64,000 nt of DNA, taken from NCBI GenBank assembly GCA_000092065.1, contig CP000595.1, one strand, 5' to 3'. This document shows positions 15,602-49,767 of this stretch, one piece after another. This DNA comes from Ostreococcus lucimarinus. Lineage: Eukaryota. Below the pieces are notes generated by a model, which was not told where the DNA came from, ran no database searches, and was given only the letters and a program-made list of their open reading frames with translations. The position numbers and the translations under genes were made by a program. How positions within the stretch are numbered: the first letter of the stretch is position 1; each line of letters begins with the position of its first letter.

Positions 15602-15839
15602 TCGCCTCGTCCCTCGCGTCCTCGCGCCGCGTTCGACCCTTTCGGCGCGCCGACGCGCCTCGCGCGCGCGCTCGCGCGTTCCCGCGCGCGCTCGCGGCGT
15701 CTCGCGCGCTCGCGGCGCGTTTTGCGGCGCCGCGCGCGTCGCCGCGAACGGATAAGACGACCCGCGATCGCCGCACACGCGCGCGCGCCGTCGTCGCTCG
15801 CGCCGAGCGCGCGCGTCGCGACGGCTCGTCGCACGCGCC
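15602..15839. promoter_or_regulatory. Shared bidirectional promoter region of VDE (-) and ZEP (+)
   Basis: This 238 bp lies between the chosen VDE ATG (15601, minus) and the ZEP ATG (15840, plus). The ZEP ATG is embedded in a CATG palindrome (15839-15842). Confidence 0.5.
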
Positions 15840-17486
15840 ATGCGCTCGACCGTCGCGCCGTCGCGCGCGACCGCCGCGCGCGCGACGCCGGCGCCGTCCC
15901 CGCGCGCGGTGCGCTCGACCGCGGCGTCGCGTCCCGCGCGCGCGCCGCGCGCGATCGTCGCGCGCGCGCGACCGCGCGACCGCGCGCGAGCGCCGCGCGG
16001 ACTCGCGCGCGCGCGCGCGGTCTCGGACGACGTCGCGATCGACGCGACGAAGCCCAAGGTGCTGGTCGCCGGCGGCGGGATCGCGGGGCTCGTCGCGGCG
16101 GCGGCGTGCCGACGCAAGGGCATGGAGGTCAGGGTGTTCGAGAAGGTGAAAAAGTACGAACCGTTCGGTGGACCGATTCAGCTGCAGTGCAACGCGCAGG
16201 GAGCGCTGGATTCGATCGATCCCGCGATGGCGGAGGCGGTGACGGCGAAGGGGACGATCACGGGCGATCGCGTCAACGGGTTGCTGGACGGCGTGAGCGG
16301 GGAGTGGTTCTATCGGTTCGACACGAGAAAACCGTGCCATGATAATGGATTGCCGCTGACGCTGGTGCTGTCGAGGTTCGAACTGCTGGACATACTGTCG
16401 AACGGGGTCGGGGCGGAGAACATCGAGATGGGGACGGTGGTGGAGAGGTACGAACACAGGGGCGAAAAGGTGGTGGCGACGCTCACGGACGGACGAGAGT
16501 TCGAGGGAGACGTGCTGATCGGGGCGGATGGGATTCGGTCCAAGCTTCGGGCGCAGATGCGCGGCGCGGATCCGGAGAAGCCGCCGCTCGCGTACGCGGG
16601 CTACGCGGTGTACACGGCGGTGTGCAAGTACTCGCAGCCGCATCGAGAGCCCCAGCACACGGACCCGAACAAGGTCGGCTACCAAGTCTTCCTCGGTCCG
16701 AAGCAATACTTCGTCTCGTCGGACGTCGGGAACGGCGAACAGCAGTACTATGCCTTCTTGGAAGTGCCTCCGGGCGGGGACGACGAGTTCGCCAAGTGCG
16801 AAAAGTGGGAAAACTATCGCGAGATGCTCATGGACCGCTTCAGCGGCTGGGCGCCGGCGGTCATGGAGCGTCTCGAGTGCACGCGACCGGAAGACGTCGA
16901 GCGCCGCGACGTGAACGATATTCTCCCCGATCCTCGCTGGGTCGACGGTCGCATGGCGTTGCTCGGCGATTCCGCGCACGCGGTGCAACCGAACCTCGGC
17001 CAAGGCGGCGGCCAAGCCATCGAGAGCGCGTACGTCTTGGCGGATGAGCTTTCCAAGTGCGAGGGCGGCAAGGGCGTGCAGAACGCGTTGATGGCGTACG
17101 CGTCTCGTCGATTCTTGCGCACGGCCTCCATTCACGGCTTGTCGCGATTCTCGTCGTTGATGAATACGTTTTACCGACGACACCTCGGCGACGAACCGTA
17201 CGACTGGTACCCCGAGCCGGTCAAAAACATGTGGAACACCGTCGCCAAGGCGAAGATTCCGCACCCTGGCTCAGTGATCGGTCAAATCGCGCTCATCGGC
17301 ACCATGCCCATCATTTTAGAGTACGTCGGCGCCGGTTACGGCTTGCCCGGCGTCTTGGGCGGCGCGTCGACGGGCAACGGCAAGGATCGCGTTCCGCGCT
17401 CCCAAGTCCCGGGCATCTCCGCCCCTCTTCGAGACTTGACCGCCGAAGATTTCAAGATGCGTGGCATTCCCGGTTTCGCCAAGTGA
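15840..17486 (+). CDS. ZEP: Zeaxanthin epoxidase (ZEP/ABA1-type FAD monooxygenase), plastid-targeted, no C-terminal FHA domain
   Basis: ATG at 15840 was verified. After a transit peptide it has the FAD fold VLVAGGGIAGLVAAAACRRKG. It matches plant ZEP strongly and collinearly in GPIQLQCNAQGALDSID, GDRVNGLLDGVSGEWFYRFDT, GADGIRSKLR, YQVFLGPKQYFVSSDVGNGEQQYYAF, LLGDSAHAVQPNLGQGGGQAIE and KIPHPG. It ends GIPGFAK with no FHA-like segment. Confidence 0.9.
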   Translation: MRSTVAPSRATAARATPAPSPRAVRSTAASRPARAPRAIVARARPRDRARAPRGLARARAVSDDVAIDATKPKVLVAGGGIAGLVAAAACRRKGMEVRVFEKVKKYEPFGGPIQLQCNAQGALDSIDPAMAEAVTAKGTITGDRVNGLLDGVSGEWFYRFDTRKPCHDNGLPLTLVLSRFELLDILSNGVGAENIEMGTVVERYEHRGEKVVATLTDGREFEGDVLIGADGIRSKLRAQMRGADPEKPPLAYAGYAVYTAVCKYSQPHREPQHTDPNKVGYQVFLGPKQYFVSSDVGNGEQQYYAFLEVPPGGDDEFAKCEKWENYREMLMDRFSGWAPAVMERLECTRPEDVERRDVNDILPDPRWVDGRMALLGDSAHAVQPNLGQGGGQAIESAYVLADELSKCEGGKGVQNALMAYASRRFLRTASIHGLSRFSSLMNTFYRRHLGDEPYDWYPEPVKNMWNTVAKAKIPHPGSVIGQIALIGTMPIILEYVGAGYGLPGVLGGASTGNGKDRVPRSQVPGISAPLRDLTAEDFKMRGIPGFAK

Positions 17487-31215: not shown

Positions 31216-32757
31216 CTAAATCTCTAAATTCTTACCACCACCCATCGCGATCGGGTGGTCGTGCCAAGTGCGCGCGCCGCACTTGTCCACGACGTCGCGC
31301 GGCTCCGTCGCGACGCTCAAGCCTCGGGAGTCGGCGCCCTGCGGGAACGACCACGGGACGTCGGCGTGCCGCGCGGGATCGTACCGCACGACGTCGCGCA
31401 CGCCCGCGTTCCAATCGAGAACTTCGTAACATCGCGCTTCGGCGTCCAGAAGACACTCGGGAACGCCCTCGGCGCGTTCGCGAAGCGCGGGATTGAAGAC
31501 TATGGGAAGCCACGCGCGCTCCAACGTGTGGGCCCACTCCAAAGCGGCGAAGTACTCGAAATCGACCGCGCTCGTGAGTTTGCCGTCGCAAGCGACGAGT
31601 AAACTGAGCGCTTCGTAAAACTTTTGCGAGCGATGCTTCGCCATGTCGCGCGTCACGGCAAAAATCGCCGAAATGGGCCAATCGAGCCTCTCCCCGAGGT
31701 ACCGCGACGACACGCGCCAGCCCGGTCTTTCGGATGCGTTCCTATCGGGCGCATCCGCGAGTTCGCTCGCCGGATCCTCGACGTCTTTGACGACATCGAA
31801 GAACGTTCGCAGAAGCAGCGCGAAGGCGTTGGTGTACATGTAAGTACCCACTAAAGGCTCTCGCGCCACGCTGTACGCGATGAACGTGTCGCCGTCGAAG
31901 TCTGTCGGCGCTTTTCCGTCGCGAGCGACCGAAAACTCTTTCTCCATCTTCCGCGCGCGCGCGTCGACCACGCGCGTAACCGTCCCGTCTCGCTCTCCCG
32001 TTCGCAACTCCTCGACGAACGCGCGCAGACTAGGCCAAAACGGCCTGTCGTCGTGCGCGAAGATGAAAATCTTCGGCGCGTCGCCGACGTACGTTTCGCG
32101 CAAAAACCACGCCATCGCGTCCACTTCGCGCGCTTGTGAATTCGGCATCTCCGCGCACATCCACGTCATCGCCCTCAAATCGTCGGTGAGCGCGTCGCAC
32201 GCGCTCTCCGGCGTCTTCGCCGCGAAGACCAATCCGAGCGTCGTCGCCGCCAAACCGTCGAATCGTTTCGTCAAGTGCGCCACCGAGTTCCCGCAGCACC
32301 ACGTCACGACGTACGCCACCTCGGGCACGACATCGCTTCGCCACGCGCCACTCACCGCGCCCCGCGCGAGATCCGCGGACGCCTCCGCGCGCGTCGCCGT
32401 CGTCGCGTTCGCCGCCGCCGACCCCAAATCCAAATCCGCCTCCACCGTCTCCACCGTCTCCACCGCCGACCCCTCCACCGCCGCGCGCGACGCCTCGCCC
32501 ACCTCTCCCGTCCCTCCCGACCTCACCGCGCGCGTCGCGATGCCTCGCGTCGCTCGCGCGTCGTCGAGCGCGCGTCGCGTCGACGCCCGCGCCGCGCCCC
32601 GCCCCCTTCCCGCGCCGTCGCGCGCCGTCGTCCACGTCGTCGCCATCGTCGCGATCGCCGCGATCGCCAGCATCGTCCGCGCCGTCTCGCGCCGTCGCGT
32701 CGTCCGCCGCGGCGTCGCGGTCGTTCGCGCGTCCCGTCGACGCCGCGGCGAATCGCC

Positions 32758-32791
<34 letters not shown>

Positions 32792-32844
32792 TCGCGGCGC
32801 GTCGCGGCGTCGTCCCGCGCGACGCGCGTCGCGGCGCGCGCCAT
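31216..32844 (-). CDS. Hypothetical type-II membrane protein (unknown function)
   Basis: It is the only long ORF with non-degenerate composition in this interval. It has an N-terminal low-complexity region with a (DA)n tract, a predicted membrane anchor (MLAIAAIATMATTW) and a globular C-terminal region with no confident homolog. ATG at 32844 was verified, but the true start may be an internal Met near the anchor. Confidence 0.4.
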
Positions 32845-33086
32845 CGGCGCGCGCGTCGCGGCGACGCGCGTCGCGATGCGTCGCGCGCCGCGCGCGTCAA
32901 AGATTAAAAGATTGAAAATCTGCGACCGCCGCGCGCGCGCGCGACCCGGCGTCGCGCGTACGGGCGTCTTTAAAAAAAAAGACGCACCGCGAACGCGCGA
33001 CCGGGCGAACGTACGAACGCGGGTCGTTCGAATCGACCCCGCGCGCGACGCGGCCGTCGCGCGCGCGCGCGCGCGTGCCGGCGTCG

Positions 33087-33270
33087 CGCGACCGACCGTT
33101 TTTTCGGCGCGCGACCGACCGTTTTTTTTTTATCCACGCGCGCATTCGTAAGAACGCTCGAATGAACGCCATGTGCGCGCGCGGCCACCGCGCGCGACCG
33201 ACCGTTTTTTTTTTTGAATCCACGCGCGTATTCGTAAGAACGCTCGAATGCACGCCATGTGCGCGCGCGG
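33087..33270. repeat. Intergenic tandem duplication (about 80-bp unit x2 plus a partial third copy of its 5' motif CGCGCGACCGACCG-T(6-13))
   Basis: Copy 1 at 33108..33184 and copy 2 at 33191..33270 are near-identical: gcgcgaccgaccg, a T-run, [ga]atccacgcgcg[ct]attcgtaagaacgctcgaatg[ac]acgccatgtgcgcgcgcgg. They lie in the divergent promoter between the 31216..32844 (-) gene and the FtsHi (+) gene. Confidence 0.85.
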
Positions 33271-33271
33271 C

Positions 33272-33326
33272 AAAACCCGTAATCGATCGCGCGCGCGCGC
33301 CCACCGCGCGATCGATTACGGGTTTT
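33272..33326. repeat. Perfect 21-bp-arm inverted repeat (palindromic hairpin) with 13-nt spacer
   Basis: Left arm 33272-33292 is aaaacccgtaatcgatcgcgc. The right arm 33306-33326 is its exact reverse complement. It directly abuts the tandem duplication and lies about 135 bp upstream of the FtsHi ATG. Confidence 0.85.
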
Positions 33327-33461
33327 TATCGCGCGCCGCCCTAGGTCGCGACGATCGCGCGTGCGCCGCGCGCGACGCCGCGACGCGCGTCACGTCGCGT
33401 CGATCGGACGCGCGCGCGCGTGGCGTCGCGTCTGATCGTCCGATCGACCCGCGGCGACGCG

Positions 33462-36092
33462 ATGGCGCTCGGCGCGCGCGCGACGACGCGGGATTTCGCG
33501 ACGGGCGCGACGCGCGTCGCGCGACGACGACGACGACGCGCGACGACGACGACGACGACGCGGGATGTCGCGACGCGGGCGCGCGGTGACGACGGTGACG
33601 CGCGACGCGTCGCGCGCGCGGCGGTCGGCGACGACGCGGCGCCGATGGCGAGCGAGGACGGGGCGACGGCGACGGGGTCGGCGAGACGCGCGCTGGGGCG
33701 AGCGCTGAGCGTCGACGACGACGACGCGCCGGGACGACCGTCGGCGCTGATGAAGACGCCGCGACCGACGGTGAAGCCGACGAAGGTGCCGCGGTGGTTG
33801 GCGCCGCTGGTGGATCAGTATTTCGTCGATCACAAGGCGCAGGCGAGGGCGCTGCGAGAGGGTCGGAGGTGGGACGGCGAGGCGGAGGATAGGGAGTACG
33901 CGGCGGCGTTTAAACTGTTCAAGACGGACGAAAGCGAGCGACCGGTGGAGATGACGTATCTGTTGGAGGATTACCCGAAGTTGTTGAAGCGGATGGGGAA
34001 GATGCGCAAGGCGCGACGGGCGAGTCGGGCGCAGCGGGAGGACACGTACCCGGATCCCGACACGAAGACTGTGAAATTCGGGTACCAGCGAATCGCGGAG
34101 AAGATGGGCGTGTACCCGCGCATCGATGGCGAGGCGACGTACGCGCAGTTTTTGGAGTACCTCGAACGACGCGAGGTGACGCGGGTGTTGCTCTACGAAG
34201 AGGGGAACATGGCCATCGCGGAGATGGGCGGTCCGGCGACGCACTTGGATCCGAACGTCGACGTCATTCGGTGGAAGGTGCAAATCCCGGGCGACGCGCA
34301 CGATGAGGTGACGCGGGCGTGTCTGAAAGCGTTTTACACGAAACCACACAACCCGGAAGATTTGTTCACTCCGGCGCAAACGCCGTGCCACCTGTTCATG
34401 AACATCAAGCCTTGGAACGTGGGCGTGCACGGCGCGCGCAACTGGCTCATGGCGTCGACGTTTTTCTACCTCGCGGGTACCGTGTGCAAGGGGGTGATTC
34501 AGGCGGACAAGGATCCCGAGGTCAAAAAGCGACGCGCGTTGAGGCAAAAGATGAAGAACGAGCGCGCGGCGCTCGCGGGGCAGATGGGAAAATCCAAGGC
34601 GAAGCTGGTGAAGAAGAACCAATCCAAGGTGCGCTTCAAAGACGTCGCCGGTCAAGACATGGTGGTGAACGAATTCCAGACCATCATCGACGTCATGAAG
34701 GGCAATCCGAAATACAAGGGGCGTTACGTCGAGCCGCCGAAAGGGATCTTGTTGGAAGGACCGCCCGGCACGGGGAAGACGCTCTTGGCGAAAGCCGTCG
34801 CCGGCGAAGCCGGGTTGCCATTTTTTTACGCCAACGGTTCCGAGTTTGTGGAGATGTTCGTCGGCGTCGCCGCGAGTCGCATGCGCAACCTGTTCAAGCG
34901 CGCGCGTGAAAACGCGCCGTCGATCATTTTCATCGACGAGCTCGACACCATCGGTCGCGCTCGCAACGCTGGCGAACAGCGCGACTCGTCGACGTCTGAG
35001 CGCGAGCAAGGGTTGATGCAAATGTTAGTCGAGATGGATGGTTTCGACAACAAGGAGTCCGGTTGTGAGATCTTGGTCATCGGTGCGACAAACTTGGCGA
35101 CGCAACTCGATCCAGCGCTGCTGCGTTCGGGGAGATTCGATCGCACCTATCACATCGGCGTGCCGCCGACGTCCGAGGCTCGCATGCCGATTTTGCAAGT
35201 GCACGCTCGCAACTTAAACATCGACCGCGGAGGTGACGACAAGTACGAGAGCGATGCCTTCTTACATCGCGTTGCCGATCTCACCACCGGCTTCTCCGGC
35301 GCCGAGCTCGCGAACGTGCTCAACGAAGCCGCCATCTTGAGCGTTCGCGAAGGCAAGGACTCCATCGATATCAACGACATAGAAGCCGTTTTGGAAAAGC
35401 AAGCCGTCGGTCTCATCAGCGCTCCGCTGGACGATGGTTGGGGGAAAGAGCACTTGGCCATCATCGAAGCGGCCAAGGCTGTGATTTATTCCGCTCGCCC
35501 CGAGCTCGGCCCGGAGCTGCTGCAAGTCTCCATTCGCCCTCGAGGAACGCAAATGTCTGGCCTCATCTTGACGGAGCGCTCGAGCGAAGCCGAAGCCGAG
35601 ATTCGCACCAGGATAGGTCCGGACACGCTGGGTTTGTACATCGACGCTCTCGCCGTGACGTTGACTGGTCGATGCGCAGAGTTGCACTTTTTCGGTCCCG
35701 ACGGTGTGTCCATTCGAACGAATGAAGAAGTTTCCGCGGCGGCGGAGATGGCGTTCGACATCGTCACCACGTCGGGTCTGTACCCGGATAGCAAGTTTGC
35801 GCCGCACTTCGATATGGCCATGGTTCACCAGCTCAGAATTCCTCGAGAAAATATGGAAAAAGGCACGCTCGATGTCATCCTTCGCGCGCACACCAAGGGC
35901 ATGGAACTCATTAAGGAGTATGCGCCGCTCATCGAACGCGTCGCGAACGAGCTCATGGAGAACGAACGCTTGTACGGCTCCACGGTTCGCGCAATGGTGA
36001 AGAAATACCAGCAAGAAGAACTAGGCGGCAACTTTACGCGCACGCCGTCGTTCTACGAAAGGGCGGCGATGAATAGCGCATCCAGCAATTAG
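33462..36092 (+). CDS. FtsH-like AAA+ protein with degenerate M41 metalloprotease motif (FtsHi-type, presumably plastid)
   Basis: The ORF-track start at 33420 is GTG; the first ATG at 33462 was verified. The AAA module is intact: Walker A GPPGTGKTLLAKA, Walker B IIFIDELD, and the SRH with LDPALLRSGRFDR. The M41 domain is recognisable, but the zinc-binding site reads AIIEAAKAV where FtsH has YHEAGHA, so both His ligands are lost. Confidence 0.8.
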   Translation: MALGARATTRDFATGATRVARRRRRRATTTTTTRDVATRARGDDGDARRVARAAVGDDAAPMASEDGATATGSARRALGRALSVDDDDAPGRPSALMKTPRPTVKPTKVPRWLAPLVDQYFVDHKAQARALREGRRWDGEAEDREYAAAFKLFKTDESERPVEMTYLLEDYPKLLKRMGKMRKARRASRAQREDTYPDPDTKTVKFGYQRIAEKMGVYPRIDGEATYAQFLEYLERREVTRVLLYEEGNMAIAEMGGPATHLDPNVDVIRWKVQIPGDAHDEVTRACLKAFYTKPHNPEDLFTPAQTPCHLFMNIKPWNVGVHGARNWLMASTFFYLAGTVCKGVIQADKDPEVKKRRALRQKMKNERAALAGQMGKSKAKLVKKNQSKVRFKDVAGQDMVVNEFQTIIDVMKGNPKYKGRYVEPPKGILLEGPPGTGKTLLAKAVAGEAGLPFFYANGSEFVEMFVGVAASRMRNLFKRARENAPSIIFIDELDTIGRARNAGEQRDSSTSEREQGLMQMLVEMDGFDNKESGCEILVIGATNLATQLDPALLRSGRFDRTYHIGVPPTSEARMPILQVHARNLNIDRGGDDKYESDAFLHRVADLTTGFSGAELANVLNEAAILSVREGKDSIDINDIEAVLEKQAVGLISAPLDDGWGKEHLAIIEAAKAVIYSARPELGPELLQVSIRPRGTQMSGLILTERSSEAEAEIRTRIGPDTLGLYIDALAVTLTGRCAELHFFGPDGVSIRTNEEVSAAAEMAFDIVTTSGLYPDSKFAPHFDMAMVHQLRIPRENMEKGTLDVILRAHTKGMELIKEYAPLIERVANELMENERLYGSTVRAMVKKYQQEELGGNFTRTPSFYERAAMNSASSN

Positions 36093-40799: not shown

Positions 40800-42329
40800 C
40801 TAAAACGCGTCGTCGACCTCGCACCCGAATAACGCGCGCGCCATTCGCCCGACGATCATCTCCAACAGCGCCGGTTCGCGCGCCGCGGCGTCGATGAAGC
40901 CTTCGACGTGGCGCAAACGTTCGTGGCCGTCGACGTCGACGTCGTCGTCGTCCGCGACGTTTCGCGGCGCTAATTTCACGCGCATCATAGCGCGCGTGGG
41001 GTTGACGTGCGCGTGCACGCACAGCAGTAGCGTTCGCACGGATTCGCGAAACGCCGCGGGAAAGTTTTTGTGCGACGCGCGACTCCAGCGCGTGGGATTG
41101 CCGACGCGCCAGCAGTGCGCGACGCCGCCGTCACACGTCGCGCCATACATCTCATCTCGAGCGGGCGTGATCGCGAGCAAGCTTGGAAGCGTTCGTCTGT
41201 GCCCGCTCGTGTCGTGAAAGTGCTGCGCCGGGTGAAGCGAGGTGATCAACGCGCCGTTGCCCGGATTGATGACCCAAATCGCGCCGTCGCGATGCGCCAA
41301 GAATAAGCTCCCGCCCACGCTGCACAGCGAACCGCAGTCGATGAAGACGTTGGACGCGCCGAGCCCTTCGATGCTAAACCGATTCACCTCCGCGCCGTCC
41401 TCGGCGTCTAAAATCACGAGCTTTACGGACGAATCCGGAGCCGCGTACGTCGTCCCGTGCACCATCTCCTCGCACGAGCACGTCGCCGCGCGAGACGACA
41501 ACGTCCCTCCCCTGTCGATCACGGCCGCGCCGGCGAGAAACACCCCTCGTCCCGGCTCGCGCCTCGAGCGCCAAATCAACCGCGCGCGCCCGAGATCGTT
41601 CACCTCCACCGCCGCGACGCTCTTTTGATCCATCGACGTCGCGACGAATCCGTCGCCGCCCAACGCCGCGTACGCCGACGTCGTCCCCAACCACGTGCTC
41701 TTCGCCATCGACGCGAATCCCTTCGCCTCTCCCGAAGCCGTCGACGGCGACAGCGTCTCGACGTCCCACACCGCCAGGCTCGCCCCCCCGGAGCCGTGCC
41801 GCGCGACCAACGTCCCCGCGCGCCGCGCTCGACCGACGACGACCAGCCGCGCGCACCGCGTCGCCGACGCGTCCCGCGCCCGACCCCATCCCGCGTCCCA
41901 TCCCGGCGGCGTCAGCGTCGCCACTTTACTCGCCTCCATCCCGCGCTCGCGCGCGCATCGATACACCCACACCGACCCGTCCGTCATCCCGACGGCGAAC
42001 TCGTCCGCGTCGTCGCGCGTCGCCGCCGCGCTCGCGCACCCTCGCGCGCCTCGCGCGCGCCGCCACACCCCCCGACCGCGCCCGCGCGGCGCGAAGTACA
42101 CGACGCCGTCCCCCGGCGCGCTCGGCGCGCATCCCGCGCACGCGACGACGCCGCGCGACGTCGCGAGCGCGTGACACTCGAACCGCGTCGCGCCTTCGTC
42201 GTCGCTCGACGCGTCGCCGTCGGCGTTCGAGACGCCGATCGAGACGCGACGCGCCGGGCGATCGACGTAGTCGTCCGCGGCGCGCTCGAGCACGACGGCG
42301 CTCCGCGAGCGCGCGCCGCGCGGACGCAT
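40800..42329 (-). CDS. WD40-repeat protein (hypothetical)
   Basis: ATG at 42329 was verified. There are repeated WD-like blades (GSVWVYR, LAVWDVETL, WVINPGNG, HCWRVGN) and a conserved-looking C-terminal tail. No specific ortholog was recognised. Confidence 0.5.
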   Translation of the reverse strand: MRPRGARSRSAVVLERAADDYVDRPARRVSIGVSNADGDASSDDEGATRFECHALATSRGVVACAGCAPSAPGDGVVYFAPRGRGRGVWRRARGARGCASAAATRDDADEFAVGMTDGSVWVYRCARERGMEASKVATLTPPGWDAGWGRARDASATRCARLVVVGRARRAGTLVARHGSGGASLAVWDVETLSPSTASGEAKGFASMAKSTWLGTTSAYAALGGDGFVATSMDQKSVAAVEVNDLGRARLIWRSRREPGRGVFLAGAAVIDRGGTLSSRAATCSCEEMVHGTTYAAPDSSVKLVILDAEDGAEVNRFSIEGLGASNVFIDCGSLCSVGGSLFLAHRDGAIWVINPGNGALITSLHPAQHFHDTSGHRRTLPSLLAITPARDEMYGATCDGGVAHCWRVGNPTRWSRASHKNFPAAFRESVRTLLLCVHAHVNPTRAMMRVKLAPRNVADDDDVDVDGHERLRHVEGFIDAAAREPALLEMIVGRMARALFGCEVDDAF

Positions 42330-42406
42330 CCCGCGGTGTGACGATTACACGCCGCACTCGCCGACGCGCGACGACGCGCGACGACGCGCGTGCCGGCGTT
42401 CTCGAG

Positions 42407-43456
42407 ATGCCGGAAGACGCCGCGACAACCGACGCCGTCGCGCGCGCCACCGCGACGCTCGGCGACGCGCGCGCGCCGACGCCCGCGCGCTTCTCCGCGC
42501 TCTTCCAGCTCCGCGCGCTCGCGACGCCCGACGCCGTCGACGCGCTCGTCGAGCGGCTGCGCGCGTCGCGCTCGGATTCGGCGCTCGTGCGGCACGAGTG
42601 CGCGTTCGCGCTGGGGCAGATGCGCGCGCGACGCGCGATCGACGCGCTGATGGAGACGCTGCGGGACGGCGACGACGACGGGATGGTTCGACACGAGTGC
42701 GCCGAGGCGCTGGGCGCGATCGCGAGCGACGATGGACGATGCGCGACGGCGCTGAGGGAAGCGGCGGGGGATGCGCGCCGGGAGGTGGCGGAGACGGCGG
42801 CGCTGGCGCTGAGGAAACTGGAGATGTGCGGCGCGGGGGGCGCGAGGGACACGGGGAGCGCGACGGGGAGCGCGAAGGAACGCGCGAGTCGACGACGCGA
42901 CGACGGAGGGACGACGGGGGGGGCAGAGGAGGGTAAAACGGAGACGACGTGTTTGAGCGTCGATCCGATCCCGGCGATGCCGACGGAGACGCCGTTCGAG
43001 CGATTGAAGGCGGTGGTTTTGGACGACGCGCACGAAATGTGGGAGCGGTACGCGGCGATGTTCGCGTTGCGGAATAAATCGTGCGCCGATCGAGAATCCA
43101 GCGACGCGTGCGCGGACGTCCTGGGCGAGGTTTTGAGCGCGAGCGGGAGCGCGCTGCTGAAGCACGAGGTGTGCTACGTGTTGGGGCAATTACAGAGCGC
43201 GAGCCCGGGGGCGCGAGACGCGTTGATTCGATGCCTCGAAGACTCGCGCGAGCACCCCATGGTGCGTCACGAAGCCGCCGAAGCGCTCGGATCGATCGCG
43301 CATCCGAGCACGCGAGGGTACCTCGAGTCGTTCGCGTCCGATCCCGAGCCCATCATCGCCGAATCGTGCGAAGTGGCGCTCGAAATCATGCGCCGAGAGC
43401 GCGAGGGCGAAATCGTCACCGCCGACGGCGCCGTCGTCGCCGTCAAACGCGACTGA
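42407..43456 (+). CDS. DOHH: Deoxyhypusine hydroxylase (DOHH; eIF5A hypusine biosynthesis)
   Basis: The ORF-track start at 42338 is GTG; the first ATG at 42407 was verified. It has the symmetric HEAT-repeat dyads with four HE motifs (VRHECAFALGQM, VRHECAEALGAI, LKHEVCYVLGQL, VRHEAAEALGSI) and is collinear with human DOHH. Confidence 0.9.
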   Translation: MPEDAATTDAVARATATLGDARAPTPARFSALFQLRALATPDAVDALVERLRASRSDSALVRHECAFALGQMRARRAIDALMETLRDGDDDGMVRHECAEALGAIASDDGRCATALREAAGDARREVAETAALALRKLEMCGAGGARDTGSATGSAKERASRRRDDGGTTGGAEEGKTETTCLSVDPIPAMPTETPFERLKAVVLDDAHEMWERYAAMFALRNKSCADRESSDACADVLGEVLSASGSALLKHEVCYVLGQLQSASPGARDALIRCLEDSREHPMVRHEAAEALGSIAHPSTRGYLESFASDPEPIIAESCEVALEIMRREREGEIVTADGAVVAVKRD

Positions 43457-43623: not shown

Positions 43624-43992
43624 ATGACCGCCAACCTCGCCTCCCGTCCCCTCGCCCGCCTCCCGCCCGAGGTCAACCGCACGCTGTACGTCCGTAACCT
43701 CCCCTTCAACGTCAGCAGCGAGGACATGCACGAGATATTCGGTAAATACGGCGCCCTGCGACAGATTCGCCTCGGGACGACCAAGGCGACCAAGGGCACC
43801 GCCTACGTCGTCTACGAGGACATCCACGACGCCAAGCAGGCGTGCGAGCACCTCAGCGGATTCAACGTCGCGAACCGCTACCTGATCGTGCTGTATCACC
43901 AGAGCGGAAAGGCGACGCAGAGCGTCGAGCGACGCGCGGCGGAGACGGCGCGTCTGCAGCGCGAGCACGGCGTCTCGGGAACGCAAACCTGA
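43624..43992 (+). CDS. SF3B6: Splicing factor 3B subunit 6 (SF3B6/p14/SF3b14a)
   Basis: ATG at 43624 is in frame within ORF 43081..43992; the upstream part of that ORF is low-complexity. LPPEVNRTLYVRNLPFNVSSEDMHEIFGKYGALRQIRLGTTKATKGTAYVVYEDIHDAKQACEHLSGFNVANRYLIVLY is near-identical to p14. Confidence 0.9.
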   Translation: MTANLASRPLARLPPEVNRTLYVRNLPFNVSSEDMHEIFGKYGALRQIRLGTTKATKGTAYVVYEDIHDAKQACEHLSGFNVANRYLIVLYHQSGKATQSVERRAAETARLQREHGVSGTQT

Positions 43993-44407
43993 CGCTCGAC
44001 GCCCGCGAGCGCGATATTTTAGCGCGTGTAACGATAGTGATTAGCGTACTAGTGCCGAACGCGGCGCCGCGGACGCGGTCGGATTCATCGCGTCGCGTCG
44101 CGTCGCCGTCGTCGCCACTCGTCGCCTCGCGCGACGCGAATGCGCTCGAGCGCGCGACCGTACGTCGCGGGTGCGCTCATTTTGTGGGCCGTCGCGCTGC
44201 AGGCGCACGTGTGGAGCATCCCGGACGCGGAGTTGAGGCGATTGCGCGGAGATTCGCGCGTGTCTTTCGTCCCCAGCGCGCGCGGGGTGCATGCGCGCGG
44301 GGCGAGGCGCGACGGCGACGACGACGACGACGCGAGCGCGCGGCGACGCGATTAAAGCGAAACGCTCGAAGGTCGCGCGAACGACGCGCGCAAACGCGCG
44401 GCGAGTC

Positions 44408-46894
44408 ATGGCGGGAGAGGCGGCGGCGATCGACGTGACGACGCTGCTGTCGACGTGCGTCGACGCGGCGGGACGCGGGTGCGCGGAGATACGGCGAGTG
44501 CAAAAAGCGCGCGATGAAGCGGCGAGCGACGATGAGAGCGCGTTCGTGGTGACGAGAAAAGTGGCGAGCGATCCGCGGTCGGCGCTGACGGAGGCGGACG
44601 TGGCGGCGCAGAGCGCGATCGTGAGCGCGTTGAGGGCGCGGTGGCCGACGGTGAAAATCGTGGGCGAGGAGGACGAAAACGACGACGCGGCGCCGATGAG
44701 CCCGAAGCGAGGGGCGCCGCTACGCGAGGATTTGTGTGCGGCGATTGAAACGTGCGATGACGCGCGATTGCGGACGATGCGGGTGAAAAGCGAGGACGTG
44801 ACGGTGTTCATCGATCCCGTGGACGGGACGCGAGAATTCGTCGAGTCGCGTCTGCGCGCGGTGCAGTGCTTGATCGGAATCGCCGTGCGCGGACGCGCGG
44901 TGGCGGGTGCGATCGGGTTGCCGTTTCCTGATGGTGACGTCGCGTCGTCGGAGGCGTGCGTGGTGTACGGCGCGGTGGCGCCGGGGGCGAAGCGCGGCGC
45001 CGTGGGCGCGCACGGCGAGCGCGGCGCCGCTCTCGAGATACGATTCGACGCAGAGAACGCGCAGGTGCGCTCGGTGACGGGAGATTCCAAAAATGCGGCG
45101 TTAATCGCGGCGAAAGAGATTTTGCGAGAGACGGCGACGAAAAGCGGGGCGACGTACGCGCACGGCTCGATCGGCGGCGCCGGGAATAAATTGCTCGCCG
45201 TCGCGGAAGGTCGCGCCGAGTACGCTTTGATGCACTTCGGGACGTCGCTGTGGGACACGTGCGCACCCGAAGCGATCGTTCGCGCGTGCGGGGGGAAAGT
45301 GACGGATTTATACGGCGCGCCGCTGATGCATTACGAAGACTCGCCGGGGGGGTTGGTGAACCAACTCGGCGTCGTCGGTTCGTCCGCCGCGTGCGAAGGC
45401 GCGATTTCGCACGACGCCGTGTGCTCGGAGATGCGTGGAAACGAAGACTTGAAGAAGATGCTGAATCGCTTCACGGGTGGTGATAGCTCGCTCGCATTCG
45501 GCGGCGATGAAATTCAGGCGAGCGACGTCGCGCGGTGTTTGGGCGGCGGACCGTTGTCGGCGCGAGACGTCGGCGACCGCGTCGCGCGCGCCGTCGGCGC
45601 CGAAGGCGACGTCTCGCTTTCCGGATACTCCGCCCCCGAGCGCGACGCCGTGCGCGGTTTGATGAGCGATGCGTGTCGTATCTATTTCAAATGGTCCACA
45701 GACGACGACGGTCGTCTGCCCCGGTCGGCGTTCTACAAAAAAGTCGACATGGGCAATCTCGAATACATGCGCACCAAGCAAGTCACGCAACCGCTCAAAA
45801 TTGCGCGCGACAGTAAATCGTACGCCGTCGAGGCGTCGTTTCTCGCCTCGGACGCGTGTAAGGCGCTCGAAGAAGCGGGCATCGGCGTACCGATATGCTA
45901 CGCCGCCGACTTGCGACCGGTGCACGACGACCCGATCGAGAGCAAGTTTTCCCTCTTGCTCGAAGACTTTCACCCGAGCGACGGTTGGGAACAGGCGAAG
46001 ATGCTTCGACCGGATCAAGCCAAATGCGCGCTCAGAGCGCTCGCGCGCATGCACGCGTTCTTCCTTCCGGGAAGTCGCTTCCGAAAGTCATCGAAAGCCG
46101 CGAATGAGGATCTTCTCGCCACGGTTTGGAGCTCGGGCGGATATTGGCAACCGAACATGCAACCGGACGATCAGATGGACGTCGTGGCGAGCGCGTGGGA
46201 GCAGCATATGTCCAGCTTCGGCGCCGCGATTGAGGCCGAGCCGACGATCGACATCGCCGTGGCGCGAACCGTCGGTGCGAGATTACAGTCGCACGCGCGT
46301 CGAATAGGCGCGGAGACGCACCCGTTTTCGGGATGTCCGGGCGCCGACGACGCGTTGCGACACGGCGGCGAGAGACTGGCGGCGCTGCAAACCGTCATCC
46401 ACGGTGATCCGAAATCGGGTAACATTTTTGAGCGACGCGCGGGGGAGTCCGACGAATGGGAAATCGGTCTGATCGATTTCCAATGGACCGGGATCGGGCT
46501 CGGCGGTACGGATGTCGGGCATTTTATGTGCGCGTCCGTGGCGCCGGAGGGGCTGAGCGCCGACGGCGCCGCGGAAAACGCACTCGTCGACGTGTACTAC
46601 GACGCGTTTTGTGAAGCCGCGGCGGAATTCGGCGCGGTGTCGAGTAAAGAAAACGCTGGCGAAGAGTTGCTCACGCGAGAAGAGTTACAAGTGCAGTATG
46701 AAAACGGAGTATTGGATACGATGCGATGCGTGTTTGGCTACCAGTGGCTTCGCGTCAAGGCGTCGCCCGAGTCGCTCGCGAAGAACGCACAGTCCATAGG
46801 GCGCAACAGTTACAACAAGTCGCTCCCGAACGCGTTGTGGATGATTCGCACTGCGGATTTGTATCTCAAGGCGCGCGAAGCGAGAGCGCATTAA
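44408..46894 (+). CDS. Two-domain fusion protein: N-terminal inositol-monophosphatase/PAP-phosphatase (FIG) fold plus C-terminal APH/choline-kinase/EcKL-type kinase-like domain
   Basis: N-terminal IMPase-superfamily motifs: VFIDPVDGTREFV and WDTCAPEAIVRACGGKVTDLYGAPL. C-terminal kinase-like motifs: VIHGDPKSGNIF (HGD...N catalytic loop) and IGLIDFQWTG (DFG-equivalent). ATG 44408 gives MAGEAAAIDVTTLL..., typical of an IMPase N-terminus. An alternative ATG at 44291 would add a Thr/Arg-rich leader. Confidence 0.6.
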   Translation: MAGEAAAIDVTTLLSTCVDAAGRGCAEIRRVQKARDEAASDDESAFVVTRKVASDPRSALTEADVAAQSAIVSALRARWPTVKIVGEEDENDDAAPMSPKRGAPLREDLCAAIETCDDARLRTMRVKSEDVTVFIDPVDGTREFVESRLRAVQCLIGIAVRGRAVAGAIGLPFPDGDVASSEACVVYGAVAPGAKRGAVGAHGERGAALEIRFDAENAQVRSVTGDSKNAALIAAKEILRETATKSGATYAHGSIGGAGNKLLAVAEGRAEYALMHFGTSLWDTCAPEAIVRACGGKVTDLYGAPLMHYEDSPGGLVNQLGVVGSSAACEGAISHDAVCSEMRGNEDLKKMLNRFTGGDSSLAFGGDEIQASDVARCLGGGPLSARDVGDRVARAVGAEGDVSLSGYSAPERDAVRGLMSDACRIYFKWSTDDDGRLPRSAFYKKVDMGNLEYMRTKQVTQPLKIARDSKSYAVEASFLASDACKALEEAGIGVPICYAADLRPVHDDPIESKFSLLLEDFHPSDGWEQAKMLRPDQAKCALRALARMHAFFLPGSRFRKSSKAANEDLLATVWSSGGYWQPNMQPDDQMDVVASAWEQHMSSFGAAIEAEPTIDIAVARTVGARLQSHARRIGAETHPFSGCPGADDALRHGGERLAALQTVIHGDPKSGNIFERRAGESDEWEIGLIDFQWTGIGLGGTDVGHFMCASVAPEGLSADGAAENALVDVYYDAFCEAAAEFGAVSSKENAGEELLTREELQVQYENGVLDTMRCVFGYQWLRVKASPESLAKNAQSIGRNSYNKSLPNALWMIRTADLYLKAREARAH

Positions 46895-46927: not shown

Positions 46928-48388
46928 TCACGCGCACACGCTCTTCTTCGATCGAAGCTCGACGGTGTATTTGTCTGGAATCGCGTCGCGCTCCATTTCT
47001 TTGACTTTACGCTCGCGAATTTGTTCAAGTAAAACGTGCGTTTGTCTTTCGCGCCGGCGCGCCTCTTCAGCCTCTTCAGCCGCGCGCGCCTCCGCCCGTC
47101 GTTTCGCCTCTTCGTTGGATTGCATTTGATGGATTAAATCGCGCTTGTGCGCCGCCGCTGCCTCGCGCCGCGCCTCCTCTCTCTGCCGCTCCGCCAGCAG
47201 CTGCGCCTCGTACTCTCGTTTCAAACGTTCGGCGTTTTCTTTTTCGTTCTCCTTCTCGATGCGCTGCAATCGCACCTTTTCTTCGTGCTGCGCCACGCGA
47301 GCGGCGGCTAAATCTTCAAGCATTTGGCGTCGCTTGGCGCGTTCGGCGCGTTCCTTCTCGCGCGTCTGTCTGTCGTACTCATCTTGCAGCTTTTGAGCGC
47401 GAATAAAGTCTTGCTCGGCGCGACCATCGATGTACTTTTCTTGCATCGAACGAAGACGCGCGGTCTCGAGTTCGCGCGCTCGGCGCTGCGCTTCCTCCTC
47501 GGCGGCTTTGGCGGCGTCGCGCTCGGCTTTCAATCGCAAGTACTCCATCACGCGTTCATCTTCCGCGCGTTCGGCGCGCTCGGCCTCGGCTTTGCGCTTG
47601 ATTTGTTCTTCGTTTTCAGCGTTTATCTCGTCCAGAAGTTTCAGCGCGGCCACGCGCTTGCGCTGCTTGTCCGCGGCGTCCTCTTCGAAGGCGCGCTCGA
47701 TGTCTTCGACGCGCTTGCGAGATTCCCGCTCGCGGCGTTCCTGCTCCATCGCGCGCGCGCGCTCGCGCTCCGCGATTTGCTCGCGCAGCGTATCTGCGCC
47801 GAGTTTCATCTCGAACCTACGCTCGCGTTCGCGACGTTCCATGCGCGCGATCGCGGCGACGCGATCGCGCTCCATCTCCTCGTCCAACCGTCGCCGCTCC
47901 GCCTCGGCGGCGATTCGCAGCGCGCGCTTCTCCTCCACCTGCGCGTCTCGCGACGTCATAACCTTGCCGTACAAAACCATAGAATTCATCTCGCGCACGT
48001 CCGCGAGATCATTCTCGAGCTCAGCCGCCGCGCGCGCTCGAGTCTCCCCATCCGTCTCCTCTCGCACGGTGCGCCTCGGCGCCGCCGCGTCGCCCTCCCG
48101 CGCGTCCTCCGCGCCCCGATTCGTCTCCGCCTTCCCTCGCGCGCGCGCAGCGTCCGCCGCGCGCATGCGCTCGCGCCGCGCGCGCTCGCGCGCCGCCGCC
48201 TCCGTCCCACCGTCGCCCGCGCCCGCGTCCGCGTCCGCGTCCGCGTCCGCGCGCGTCGCTTCGTCTCGCTCCTCCCCGCCGTCGTCCCACCGCCCGCGCG
48301 CGCGTCGCGCCATCGCGCGCGCCTCCTCGCGCGTCACGCGCGAAAACCCACCGCGCGCGCCCGCCGCCGCGCGGTGGGTCGTCGCCAT
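46928..48388 (-). CDS. Charged coiled-coil TPH-domain protein (CFAP45/MNS1-like, probable flagellar protein)
   Basis: ATG at 48388 was verified. About 400 residues of continuous E/R/K-rich heptad repeats follow the trichohyalin-plectin-homology pattern. No enzymatic motifs are present. The N-terminus is low-complexity with DADADA coding repeats. Confidence 0.45.
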   Translation of the reverse strand: MATTHRAAAGARGGFSRVTREEARAMARRARGRWDDGGEERDEATRADADADADAGAGDGGTEAAARERARRERMRAADAARARGKAETNRGAEDAREGDAAAPRRTVREETDGETRARAAAELENDLADVREMNSMVLYGKVMTSRDAQVEEKRALRIAAEAERRRLDEEMERDRVAAIARMERRERERRFEMKLGADTLREQIAERERARAMEQERRERESRKRVEDIERAFEEDAADKQRKRVAALKLLDEINAENEEQIKRKAEAERAERAEDERVMEYLRLKAERDAAKAAEEEAQRRARELETARLRSMQEKYIDGRAEQDFIRAQKLQDEYDRQTREKERAERAKRRQMLEDLAAARVAQHEEKVRLQRIEKENEKENAERLKREYEAQLLAERQREEARREAAAAHKRDLIHQMQSNEEAKRRAEARAAEEAEEARRRERQTHVLLEQIRERKVKEMERDAIPDKYTVELRSKKSVCA

Positions 48389-48561: not shown

Positions 48562-48678
48562 CGCGTCGTTCACGCGTCGTTTTCGCGTCGTTTCGGCGTC
48601 GTTTTCGCGTCGTTTTAAATCTTCAAGTCTCGAGACGCTCGAGCGAAACGATCGATTTTCGCGTCTGTGCGCGACGTT

Positions 48679-48707
<29 letters not shown>
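48562..48707. repeat. Simple repeats in a divergent promoter: (CGCGTCGTTT)n about 5 copies at 48562-48616 and (CGTCG)5 at 48681-48707
   Basis: They are directly visible between the CFAP45-like gene (start 48388, minus) and DGAT2 (start 48718, plus). Confidence 0.7.
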
Positions 48708-48709
<2 letters not shown>

Positions 48710-48717
48710 TCGTCGCG

Positions 48718-49767
48718 ATGGCGCGCGCGATACCGTCCGCGATGACGCGCGTCGACGCCGCGCCGTCGGCGAGCGCGTCGGCGCGCGCGTCGTCGGCGAC
48801 GCGCCGACACGCGCTCATGTTCGCGTGGCTCGGATTGATTCACGTCGACGTCGCGGTGACGGCGCTGGCGGTGTGGACGCTGCCGAGCGCGATGGCGGTG
48901 ACGGCGCTCGCGACGCTGGTCGCGGCGGCGGCGATCCCGCGGACGGTGGCGACGCCGAGGTGGGGCGCGCGGTTGGCGCGCGCGGTGACGAGGACGGCGA
49001 CGGCGTACTTTCCGACGCGATTGGAATTCGAAGACGAGGAGGCGTATCTGCGAGCGGTGAGGAACGAAGAGGCGTGCGTGATAGGACTGGAACCGCACGG
49101 GGTGCTGCCGCTGAGCGTGATATCGTTCGCGGAGTATTTTATGCACGATGAGGAGGGGGCGCGGCGACGAGGATTGACGCCGGCGGCGAGACGAGGCGCG
49201 CGGGCGCTGGCGAGCGCGGCGATATTTAAAGTCCCGCTCGTGAAACATCTGTGGACGTGGTTGGGGTTGGATCCGATCTCGAAGGCGTGCATGCTGAGGA
49301 TGCTGCGAGCGGGGAAGACGGCGGTGATCATTCCCGGCGGCGTCGCCGAGTGCATGGCGATGGAACGCGGCGTGGAGACGTTGTATTTGCGCAAGCGATA
49401 CGGATTCGTGAAGATCGCCATCGTGACCGGAGCGAAACTGATTCCCGCGTACACGTTCGGACAAAGTCGGACGTACGGGTACTGGCGGCTCGGGCCGCCG
49501 ATCGTGCCGAAATTCGTGGCGGATTGGATCGGGAAGACGTTTTCGTTCGCGCCGATTATTTTCTGGGGGAAATTTTGCACGCCCATCCCGTACGCGACGG
49601 CGCTCAACACGGTCGTGGGCAAACCGATCGAGGTTGAAAAAAACCCAGATCCGAGCAAGGAAGAGGTTCAGGCGAAATTGGACGAGTTTATCGACGCCAT
49701 GCGTTCGCTGTACGACAGTCACAAGGCGAGATTCGGTTACGAAGACGTTCGACTCGTGATTTGTTAG
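48718..49767 (+). CDS. DGAT2: Diacylglycerol/monoacylglycerol O-acyltransferase, DGAT2 family
   Basis: The ORF-track start at 48667 is GTG; the first ATG at 48718 was verified. There is an N-terminal membrane segment, then the DGAT2 signature EPHGVLPLSV...IPGGVAECMAMERG...LYLRKRYGFVKIAIVTGAKLIPAYTFGQSRTY. Confidence 0.8.
   Translation: MARAIPSAMTRVDAAPSASASARASSATRRHALMFAWLGLIHVDVAVTALAVWTLPSAMAVTALATLVAAAAIPRTVATPRWGARLARAVTRTATAYFPTRLEFEDEEAYLRAVRNEEACVIGLEPHGVLPLSVISFAEYFMHDEEGARRRGLTPAARRGARALASAAIFKVPLVKHLWTWLGLDPISKACMLRMLRAGKTAVIIPGGVAECMAMERGVETLYLRKRYGFVKIAIVTGAKLIPAYTFGQSRTYGYWRLGPPIVPKFVADWIGKTFSFAPIIFWGKFCTPIPYATALNTVVGKPIEVEKNPDPSKEEVQAKLDEFIDAMRSLYDSHKARFGYEDVRLVIC

Follow-up and report, generated by a model that had tools for sequence, protein, structure and literature searches.

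What would a phosphatase and a kinase do together on one polypeptide? The question is raised by a gene in a 64,000-nucleotide stretch of Ostreococcus lucimarinus contig CP000595.1 (assembly GCA_000092065.1), called the window below. According to a preliminary description made from the letters alone, one uninterrupted open reading frame (ORF) encodes an N-terminal phosphatase of the FIG/inositol monophosphatase (IMPase) superfamily and a C-terminal protein-kinase-like small-molecule kinase. Sequence searches against Pfam and PDB and fold searches agreed with this layout, and Foldseek and domain searches on the two halves supported both folds. The answer to which we are led, tentatively, is that the two halves would work in opposite directions on one bisphosphorylated metabolite.

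The complete fusion ORF runs from 44291 to 46894 on the plus strand, like all the features of the gene described below, and comprises 867 codons and a stop, with no intron. A translation check placed the nearest upstream in-frame stop at 44234. The gene had previously been taken to start at 44408; this is only the second in-frame ATG, which gives an 828-amino-acid (aa) product in the ORF listing and from which all residue numbers here are counted. The GC content of the sequence is 64%, at which long ORFs come cheaply: an antisense ORF of 405 aa (44041 to 45258, minus strand) overlaps with the region that encodes the phosphatase. Such ORFs are typical of GC-rich sequence, and nothing supports this one being a gene. 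The length of an ORF is therefore by itself no proof of a gene at this locus; it is the homology described below that settles the matter. An MMETSP transcriptome ORF (P0122), labeled "type:complete" and belonging to the 90%-identity cluster of the window protein, also has 867 aa and was identical to the window translation from 44291 at 864 of 867 positions, with zero gaps. This gap-free match means that the gene is intronless, that both domains lie on one mRNA, and that the upstream ATG is inside the transcript. Since P0122 uses the ATG at 44291, the start is most likely there and not at 44408; the JGI and MMETSP models are 867 aa long as well. The 828-aa form was present on one Logan contig (L001) with the same neighbors, and an exact look-up of the 867-aa product matched no record. 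The GC content at third codon positions (GC3) was between 0.69 and 0.84 in all 300-nucleotide blocks of the fusion frame, the domain junction included. Other transcript-derived fusions were found in independent assemblies, namely, those of Eucheuma, Diplonema, and Bolidomonas and one further Trinity assembly, and several of them were flagged complete. The locus is a real, expressed, intronless gene with a single transcript, and the two separate transcripts that would have pointed to a mis-joined ORF were not what the transcriptome contained, as both domains occur in one complete transcriptome ORF.

The phosphatase half (aa 7 to 331, positions 44426 to 45400) was delimited by Pfam, PDB sequence matches, Foldseek, and the secondary structure and predicted local distance difference test (pLDDT) scores of an AlphaFold2 model. 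Pfam Inositol_P (PF00459) matched aa 28 to 308 with an E value of 2.8e-32 and 112.7 bits, against a cut-off of 27. When all PDB sequences were searched with phmmer, the best matches were human and rat BPNT1 (2wef, E 1.1e-27; 1jp4, E 2.2e-27), followed by a phosphatase of Entamoeba acting on 3'-phosphoadenosine 5'-phosphate (PAP) and inositol polyphosphates (E 1.4e-15). The other subfamilies gave E values of 9.5e-6 (SuhB), 1.4e-5 (IMPA2), 2.1e-5 (CysQ), and 6.8e-3 (HAL2), and INPP1 likewise reached only 1e-5 or weaker. Foldseek with the full-length model also ranked 1jp4 and 2wef first and second, with TM scores on the target of 0.73 to 0.78. The first reading can be refined to the extent that the phosphatase, judged by these matches, looks specifically BPNT1-like rather than IMPase-like. 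The NCBIfam equivalogs scored far below their curated cut-offs, with 62.8 bits versus 228.8 for CysQ (TIGR01331) and 28.2 versus 267 for HAL2/SAL1 (TIGR01330), and an identity as either of these was rejected; HisN and SuhB were also far under theirs.

Conservation was followed in an alignment of 30 diverse full-length homologues, to which all counts out of 30 refer. Three motifs were kept in 30 of 30: GEE (44663 to 44671), with the metal-binding E87 and E88 that correspond to E74 and E75 of BPNT1; IDPVDGT (44810 to 44830), the metal-binding and water-activating motif with D136, D139, and T141; and the WD (W282 and D283) of WDTCAP (45251 to 45268), D283 being the third metal-binding aspartate. 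In IGGAGNK (45170 to 45190), which aligns with GGAGNK of BPNT1 (2wef and 1jp4), G256 and K261 are invariant. The motifs IDPVDGT, HGDxxxxN (here HGDPKSGN), and DF (within IDFQW), all named in the preliminary description, were recovered by translation. Its WDxxAG motif was only half right: the letters are WDTCAP, with the catalytic WD but no AG.

BPNT1, the animal 3'(2'),5'-bisphosphate nucleotidase, which is also an inositol-1,4-bisphosphate 1-phosphatase, is the best match in both sequence and structure and has the same fold. It shares GEE, DPxDGT, WD, GGxGNK with its lysine, and a threonine equivalent to T195. In contrast to the fusion, it is a stand-alone protein of ~308 aa, to which the fusion adds a kinase of ~460 aa at the C terminus and, in this alga, an N-terminal extension; the identity is ~25% over the structural alignment. 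We take T195, H198, G220, and K224 of BPNT1 to be the residues that hold the 5' (distal) phosphate of AMP or PAP. T195 aligns with T224 of the fusion (Thr, Ser, or Ala among the homologues), G219 and K224 correspond to the invariant G256 and K261, and G220 corresponds to G257, which is Gly or Ala. H198, on the other hand, is replaced by a serine (Ser227) in most members, next to the near-invariant D226, so that the motif TRSH of BPNT1 reads TGDS. A paper on INPP1 gave no specificity determinants for BPNT1. Going by these residues, the domain appears to be an active BPNT1-clade phosphatase, predicted to be a Mg2+-dependent phosphomonoesterase that probably retains a second phosphate-binding site.

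The kinase half occupies aa 366 to 828 (positions 45503 to 46891), including an N-terminal "DVARxLxGxPL" element. In the window protein, Pfam EcKL (PF02958) matched aa 659 to 737 with an E value of 2.5e-6 and 27.5 to 29.7 bits, above its cut-off of 22; the match spans model positions 213 to 288 of 294 and thus only the C-terminal quarter. The score for APH (PF01636) was borderline (23.0 versus a cut-off of 23.2), and that for choline/ethanolamine kinase (PF01633) was 10.7 to 12.3 bits, versus a gathering threshold of 29. The kinase had been called APH/choline-kinase-like; by its Pfam scores, it is one that passes the EcKL threshold and not the choline kinase threshold, and an identity as a choline kinase was rejected. 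A kinase of the NAD kinase type was rejected as well: no NAD kinase family was among the Pfam matches at an E value of ≤1, and the fold is APH-like. All 13 kinase halves that were used to build a kinase profile matched Pfam EcKL (best E value, 1.7e-20), and they also matched APH and DUF1679. Against PDB sequences, the profile gave weak matches (E 0.016 to 0.035) to the kinase domain of ACAD11, a putative APH, and 5-methylthioribose (MTR) kinase, all of which fell on the catalytic loop and the Mg site. AlphaFold2 modeled the kinase half with a pLDDT of 92.3 and a predicted template modeling score (pTM) of 0.92. Foldseek with this model listed MTR kinase first and choline kinases next, and the nearest folds (corramycin phosphotransferase, MTR kinase, and choline kinases) place the half in the APH-type bilobal fold with its helical C lobe.

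The residues expected for catalysis are kept. In the loop between strands 1 and 2 of the N lobe, RGLMS (45653 to 45667; R416, G417, and S420) has an invariant R and S, with the G in 28/30, and is read as a nucleotide-positioning loop. K444, the putative ATP-binding lysine of strand 3 (in FYKKV, 45737 to 45739), and E475, the glutamate of helix C that would pair with it (45830 to 45832; helix 462 to 480 in the AlphaFold2 model), are both invariant (30/30). So is the catalytic loop HGDPKSGN (46400 to 46423), with H665, the catalytic base D667, K669, and N672; this loop aligns with the catalytic loops of the ACAD11 kinase, APH, and MTR kinase. In IDFQW (46472 to 46486), D690, the Mg-binding aspartate equivalent to that of DFG, was found in 29/30, and F691 and Q692 are invariant. 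By these residues, this half is an EcKL/APH-fold kinase with an intact predicted catalytic set. The sole homologue with an Asn in place of D690 (INFQ) is the Bolidomonas transcript P0106, whose model, in addition, stops short of the last helix; the transcript may be incomplete or erroneous, or the copy may be impaired as a kinase.

Acceptor sites of APH-type kinases are formed by the helices of the C lobe. The invariant residues of the helical insert and C lobe of the fusion are W574, D770, R773, W780, N800, Y802, N803, and K804, and Y579 is near-invariant. The last four of the invariant residues belong to the family-specific motif NSYNK (46805 to 46819), kept in 30/30 and a candidate acceptor-binding loop; it varies as N-x-[YC]-N-K in P0269, P0278, P0250, P0294, and P0295 and is not kept in P0312 and P0324. 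Other family-specific kinase motifs are HGDxK and YWQP. Such a conserved mix of aromatic, amide, and basic residues would be better suited to a sugar or nucleotide phosphate than to a sterol or a cation, and the polar and basic residues argue weakly against an ecdysteroid or xenobiotic as the acceptor. EcKL, CHK-like, and DUF1679 kinases (PF02958 and PF07914) and APH (PF01636) share with this half HGDxxxxN, the D-F Mg motif, the lysine of strand beta-3, the glutamate of helix C, and the APH-type fold. The EcKLs, however, are found in arthropods and nematodes, whereas the fusion kinase occurs in protists and algae, is linked to a phosphatase, and has the motifs of its own mentioned above. MTR kinase (MtnK; 2olc, 2pul, and 2pyw) has 14 to 16% identity, its loop reads HGDLHTGS instead of HGDPKxxN, and no shared substrate residues are evident.

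The two halves are joined by a helical connector (aa 332 to 365, positions 45401 to 45502), in which H335 is invariant and R343 near-invariant; it has helices at 335 to 343 and 346 to 356, with a pLDDT of 80 to 91. Mean pairwise identity was 0.44 for the phosphatase, 0.47 for both kinase lobes, and 0.38 for the helical insert, and these comparable values indicate that the two halves are under similar constraint; it was lowest, 0.33, in the "linker" block of aa 331 to 400, which contains the connector. AlphaFold2 modeled all 828 residues, with the 30-homologue alignment as input, at a pLDDT of 90.2 and a pTM of 0.89, the latter referring to the whole chain and not to each domain. These model scores are consistent with a fixed arrangement of the domains, which would fit a functional unit better than beads on a string. 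Both sets of predicted catalytic residues are kept across several eukaryotic supergroups.

A search of 5.8 billion proteins (E ≤ 1e-3) gave 178 homologues; of the 120 listed, most have both Pfam domains and align over almost the entire query. The family is well represented in public environmental assemblies, and as many as 435 sequences fall into a single cluster at 90% identity. The taxa named here come from the few database entries that carry organism names. The named carriers of the fusion are Cymbomonas, Prymnesium, Cylindrotheca, Nitzschia, Pseudo-nitzschia, Thalassiosira, Bolidomonas, Aureococcus, Eucheuma, Diplonema, Amoebophrya, Pyropia, and the ichthyosporean Creolimax, and the groups with a full-length fusion are prasinophytes, red algae, diatoms, bolidophytes, pelagophytes, haptophytes, Amoebophrya, Diplonema, and Creolimax. 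Most of the nameable hosts are marine. A survey across algae had been suggested in the preliminary description; the fusion is indeed widespread there, but a distribution limited to algae was rejected, as the heterotrophic protists Diplonema, Amoebophrya, and Creolimax carry it as well. No nameable match placed it in animals, fungi, or land plants. From this distribution, the fusion is either ancient in eukaryotes or widely transferred.

Searching 1.84 billion cluster representatives with the kinase profile gave 261 proteins at an E value of ≤1e-30. Among the best 150 of these 261, matches of at least ~700 aa align with the profile from about residue 290 to 550 onward, as expected for fusions, and most of the shorter matches look like fragments or truncated gene models. 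The short protein P0295, which opens with the end of a phosphatase domain, is probably such a truncated model. Apparent stand-alone kinases were P0312 from the choanoflagellate Stephanoeca (a complete transcript ORF), P0324 from the heterolobosean Acrasis, and the metagenomic P0250. P0312 and P0324 are divergent, having kept HGDxK...N and D-Y-Q-W and lost NSYNK. The kinase family therefore also exists in an unfused form, probably with a different acceptor. A search for relatives of P0312 recovered the query itself alone, and a genome-contig profile scan of limited sensitivity for prokaryotic relatives of the kinase gave 25 pattern matches, none of which was confirmed.

Why, then, are the two activities joined? 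Most natural fusions of a small-molecule kinase with a phosphatase are opposing pairs, as in PFK-2/FBPase-2, PPIP5K/Vip1, and MJ0917, with PNKP as a sequential exception. Several kinases with the APH fold (MTR kinase, NahK, and maltokinase) phosphorylate an anomeric hydroxyl, and several members of the FIG superfamily strip the 1-phosphate from a sugar or inositol bisphosphate. The reading that we favor, while giving it somewhat less than an even chance, is that the kinase and the phosphatase of the fusion oppose each other on the same metabolite and together set the level of one bisphosphorylated nucleotide or sugar; we favor it because MJ0917, PFK-2/FBPase-2, and PPIP5K follow that logic. 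From a ribose or sugar compound that is bisphosphorylated, e.g., PAP or 3'-phosphoadenosine 5'-phosphosulfate (PAPS), the phosphatase would take off one phosphate, and the kinase would phosphorylate, with the gamma-phosphate of ATP, a hydroxyl on a small molecule that is polar and probably anionic. With the kinase making the bisphosphate and the phosphatase destroying it, a steady-state level would be set. Candidate pairs would be AMP/PAP, adenosine 5'-phosphosulfate (APS)/PAPS, and a sugar 5(6)-phosphate with its 1,5(6)-bisphosphate, the last suggested by the anomeric-hydroxyl kinases and 1-phosphate-removing phosphatases just mentioned.

The closest known logic is that of MJ0917/MMP1489 of methanogens, in which an IMPase-like NADP phosphatase domain is fused to an NAD kinase and the two catalyze opposing reactions (PMC8553519). 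There, too, a phosphatase of the IMPase superfamily and a kinase share one chain and act in opposite directions, in that case on the 2'-phosphate of an adenine nucleotide (PMC8553519). In contrast to the fusion described here, which is eukaryotic and combines an EcKL/APH-type kinase with a BPNT1-like phosphatase, MJ0917 is archaeal, its kinase belongs to the NAD kinase family, and its phosphatase is IMPase/FBPase-like. The fusion resembles MJ0917 in architecture only and is not a member of that family.

A more specific version of the opposing-pair reading, to which we would assign a small chance, is that the kinase is a new enzyme of the protein-kinase-like fold that phosphorylates the ribose 3'(2')-hydroxyl or the C1-hydroxyl of a 5'-phosphorylated nucleotide or sugar. 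Together with the BPNT1-like half, it would form a make-and-break module dedicated to a bisphosphate that serves as a signal or cofactor, e.g., PAP, PAPS, or ribose-1,5-bisphosphate.

Several points weigh against an opposing pair. PAP may not be the true substrate, because H198 of BPNT1 is a serine here and the near-invariant D226 is adjacent to what is presumed to be the site of the distal phosphate. No ligand-bound relative is close enough for its specificity to be carried over; among solved structures, none exceeds ~16% identity to the kinase. Canonical P-loop APS kinases are expected in these algae, so that a second APS kinase would be unneeded. Finally, opposing activities on a single chain require regulation by a switch, and no such switch was identified.

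Among the alternatives, the one that fares best, although we consider it improbable, is that two independent activities were joined for co-expression or co-localization. The phosphatase would have a housekeeping function, clearing the PAP left over from PAPS-dependent sulfation, a process that is heavy in marine organisms, and the kinase would act on an osmolyte, on a sterol or xenobiotic hydroxyl as animal EcKLs do, or on a vitamin precursor. Ecdysteroids are the substrates of the characterized EcKL members, and a role in xenobiotic detoxification has been proposed for the EcKLs of insects. The assignment of the kinase to EcKL by Pfam fits this proposal, as do the marine habitat of most nameable hosts, the JGI label "PAPS 3'-phosphatase / thiamine kinase-like" on some members, and the existence of the divergent kinase-only proteins P0312 and P0324, which lack NSYNK. 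Nevertheless, the fusion has persisted over very deep divergences, its connector is conserved, and AlphaFold2 models it confidently as a single body, which is more than a casual co-expression fusion would be expected to show; the conserved C-lobe residues appear from the alignment to be polar and basic, not hydrophobic or acidic as in a sterol or choline pocket.

We regard as unlikely a second alternative, in which the two halves act in sequence in salvage: the kinase would phosphorylate the 5' position of nucleoside 3'-monophosphates from RNase T2-type RNA breakdown, and the phosphatase would then remove the 3'-phosphate of the resulting nucleoside 3',5'-bisphosphate (pNp) to leave a usable nucleoside 5'-monophosphate. 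The protein would then be a mononucleotide analogue of polynucleotide kinase-phosphatase. In T4 Pnkp and mammalian PNKP, a 5'-kinase and a 3'-phosphatase on one chain act sequentially on a 3'-phosphorylated end; T4 Pnkp, which pairs the two activities, also accepts nucleoside 3'-monophosphates. These enzymes differ from the fusion in having unrelated folds (a P-loop kinase and a HAD phosphatase) and a polymer substrate. Salvage would suit the BPNT1 family, which acts on nucleoside 3',5'-bisphosphates, and the phagotrophic or parasitic heterotrophs that carry the fusion besides algae, and MTR kinase, whose substrate is a ribose derivative, ranked first or nearly so in both fold searches. Yet there is no known example of a nucleoside-3'-phosphate 5'-kinase with the protein-kinase-like fold, no data point specifically to a 5'-hydroxyl acceptor, and the advantage is doubtful because the net stoichiometry is the same as that of a 3'-nucleotidase plus a nucleoside kinase.

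Very unlikely, in our view, is a regulatory role of the kinase half, which would control the phosphatase, or itself be under the control of bound PAP, either as a protein or peptide kinase or as a pseudokinase that senses ATP. Such a half could provide the switch that bifunctional enzymes need when they are opposing or regulated; the sequence, however, is without an activation segment of the protein kinase type, and a pseudokinase was rejected because the full catalytic set is kept (K444, E475, D667, and N672 in 30/30; D690 in 29/30). Long noncoding ORFs such as the antisense one at 44041 to 45258 do occur in this GC-rich genome, but a chance read-through of two adjacent genes as a single ORF has a negligible probability and was rejected in view of the co-linear, gap-free transcriptome ORF (864/867), the nearly full-length homologues from many phyla among the 120 listed (several transcript derived and some flagged complete), and a uniform GC3 over the junction with a conserved connector.

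The preliminary description had not recognized the architecture as a described enzyme, and our literature search, outside whose scope most subscription-journal papers lay, likewise found no account of it; related mentions concerned stand-alone SAL1 or generic annotation. Database names are automatic only: "3'(2'),5'-bisphosphate nucleotidase," "PAPS 3'-phosphatase," or "hypothetical protein." Both domain families and the idea of a kinase-phosphatase fusion are already known; it is this combination for which no publication was found.

The use of the upstream ATG adds an N-terminal extension of 39 aa (MRAGRGATATTTTTRARGDAIKAKRSKVARTTRANARRV; positions 44291 to 44407), which contains 9 R, 9 A, and 8 T and a single acidic residue. 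Basic, acid-poor extensions also precede the conserved core in seven close homologues of the Mamiellophyceae type (P0158, P0004, P0008, P0010, P0012, P0013, and P0174). By its composition, the extension is probably an organelle presequence, and the same probably holds for the Mamiellophyceae generally. The homologue P0086 from a centric diatom starts with a hydrophobic stretch that ends in ...GALA-FHLP, and we take this N terminus to resemble a diatom bipartite plastid signal. Several pennate-diatom models are without an N-terminal extension; localization may therefore vary by lineage, or the gene models may be incomplete.

The neighboring genes were also inspected. Just upstream of the fusion gene lies a small RRM protein (43678 to 43992, plus strand), which is its neighbor on the Logan contig L001 too, and downstream lies a DGAT2-type diacylglycerol acyltransferase (48667 to 49767, plus strand; PF03982, E 1.5e-48). 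A functional link of the RRM and DGAT2 neighbors to the fusion is not evident. The product of the convergent neighbor (46928 to 48388, minus strand) is a coiled-coil protein of 486 aa that contains a Trichohyalin-plectin-homology (TPH) domain (E 9.8e-56). Since only 33 nucleotides separate the stop codons of the TPH gene and the fusion gene, the 3' untranslated regions must overlap or be very short. Further upstream are a HEAT-repeat protein (42338 to 43456, plus strand; Pfam HEAT_2 and HEAT_PBS) with repeated (R/K)HE...ALG motifs, which resembles deoxyhypusine hydroxylase, and a 509-aa ORF (40800 to 42329, minus strand) with no Pfam match at an E value of ≤1e-3. Elsewhere in the window, an 86-bp unit with a T10 run is tandemly duplicated at 33107 to 33271 (93% matches; score, 289). 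The duplicate lies inside the most GC-rich part of the window (32001 to 34000; GC, 0.71), where several GC-rich short tandem repeats adjoin it. A low-complexity stretch of ~240 bp rich in CG dinucleotides, a degenerate (CG)n array, occupies 15778 to 16019.

The fusion has among its hosts Micromonas-like prasinophytes, diatoms, haptophytes, and pelagophytes, groups that count among the major marine primary producers. If both halves share one metabolite, PAP/PAPS or sugar-bisphosphate metabolism would have a new point of control, with a bearing on sulfur assimilation, sulfation, stress signaling, or nucleotide salvage, and the EcKL/APH kinases would gain a new class of acceptor. The fusion may also serve as a Rosetta-stone hint that BPNT1 and EcKL-type kinases of animals are functionally linked. 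If the make-and-break module were real, sulfur or nucleotide metabolism would have its counterpart of PFK-2/FBPase-2, one that is widespread among marine protists and was lost from animals, fungi, and land plants.

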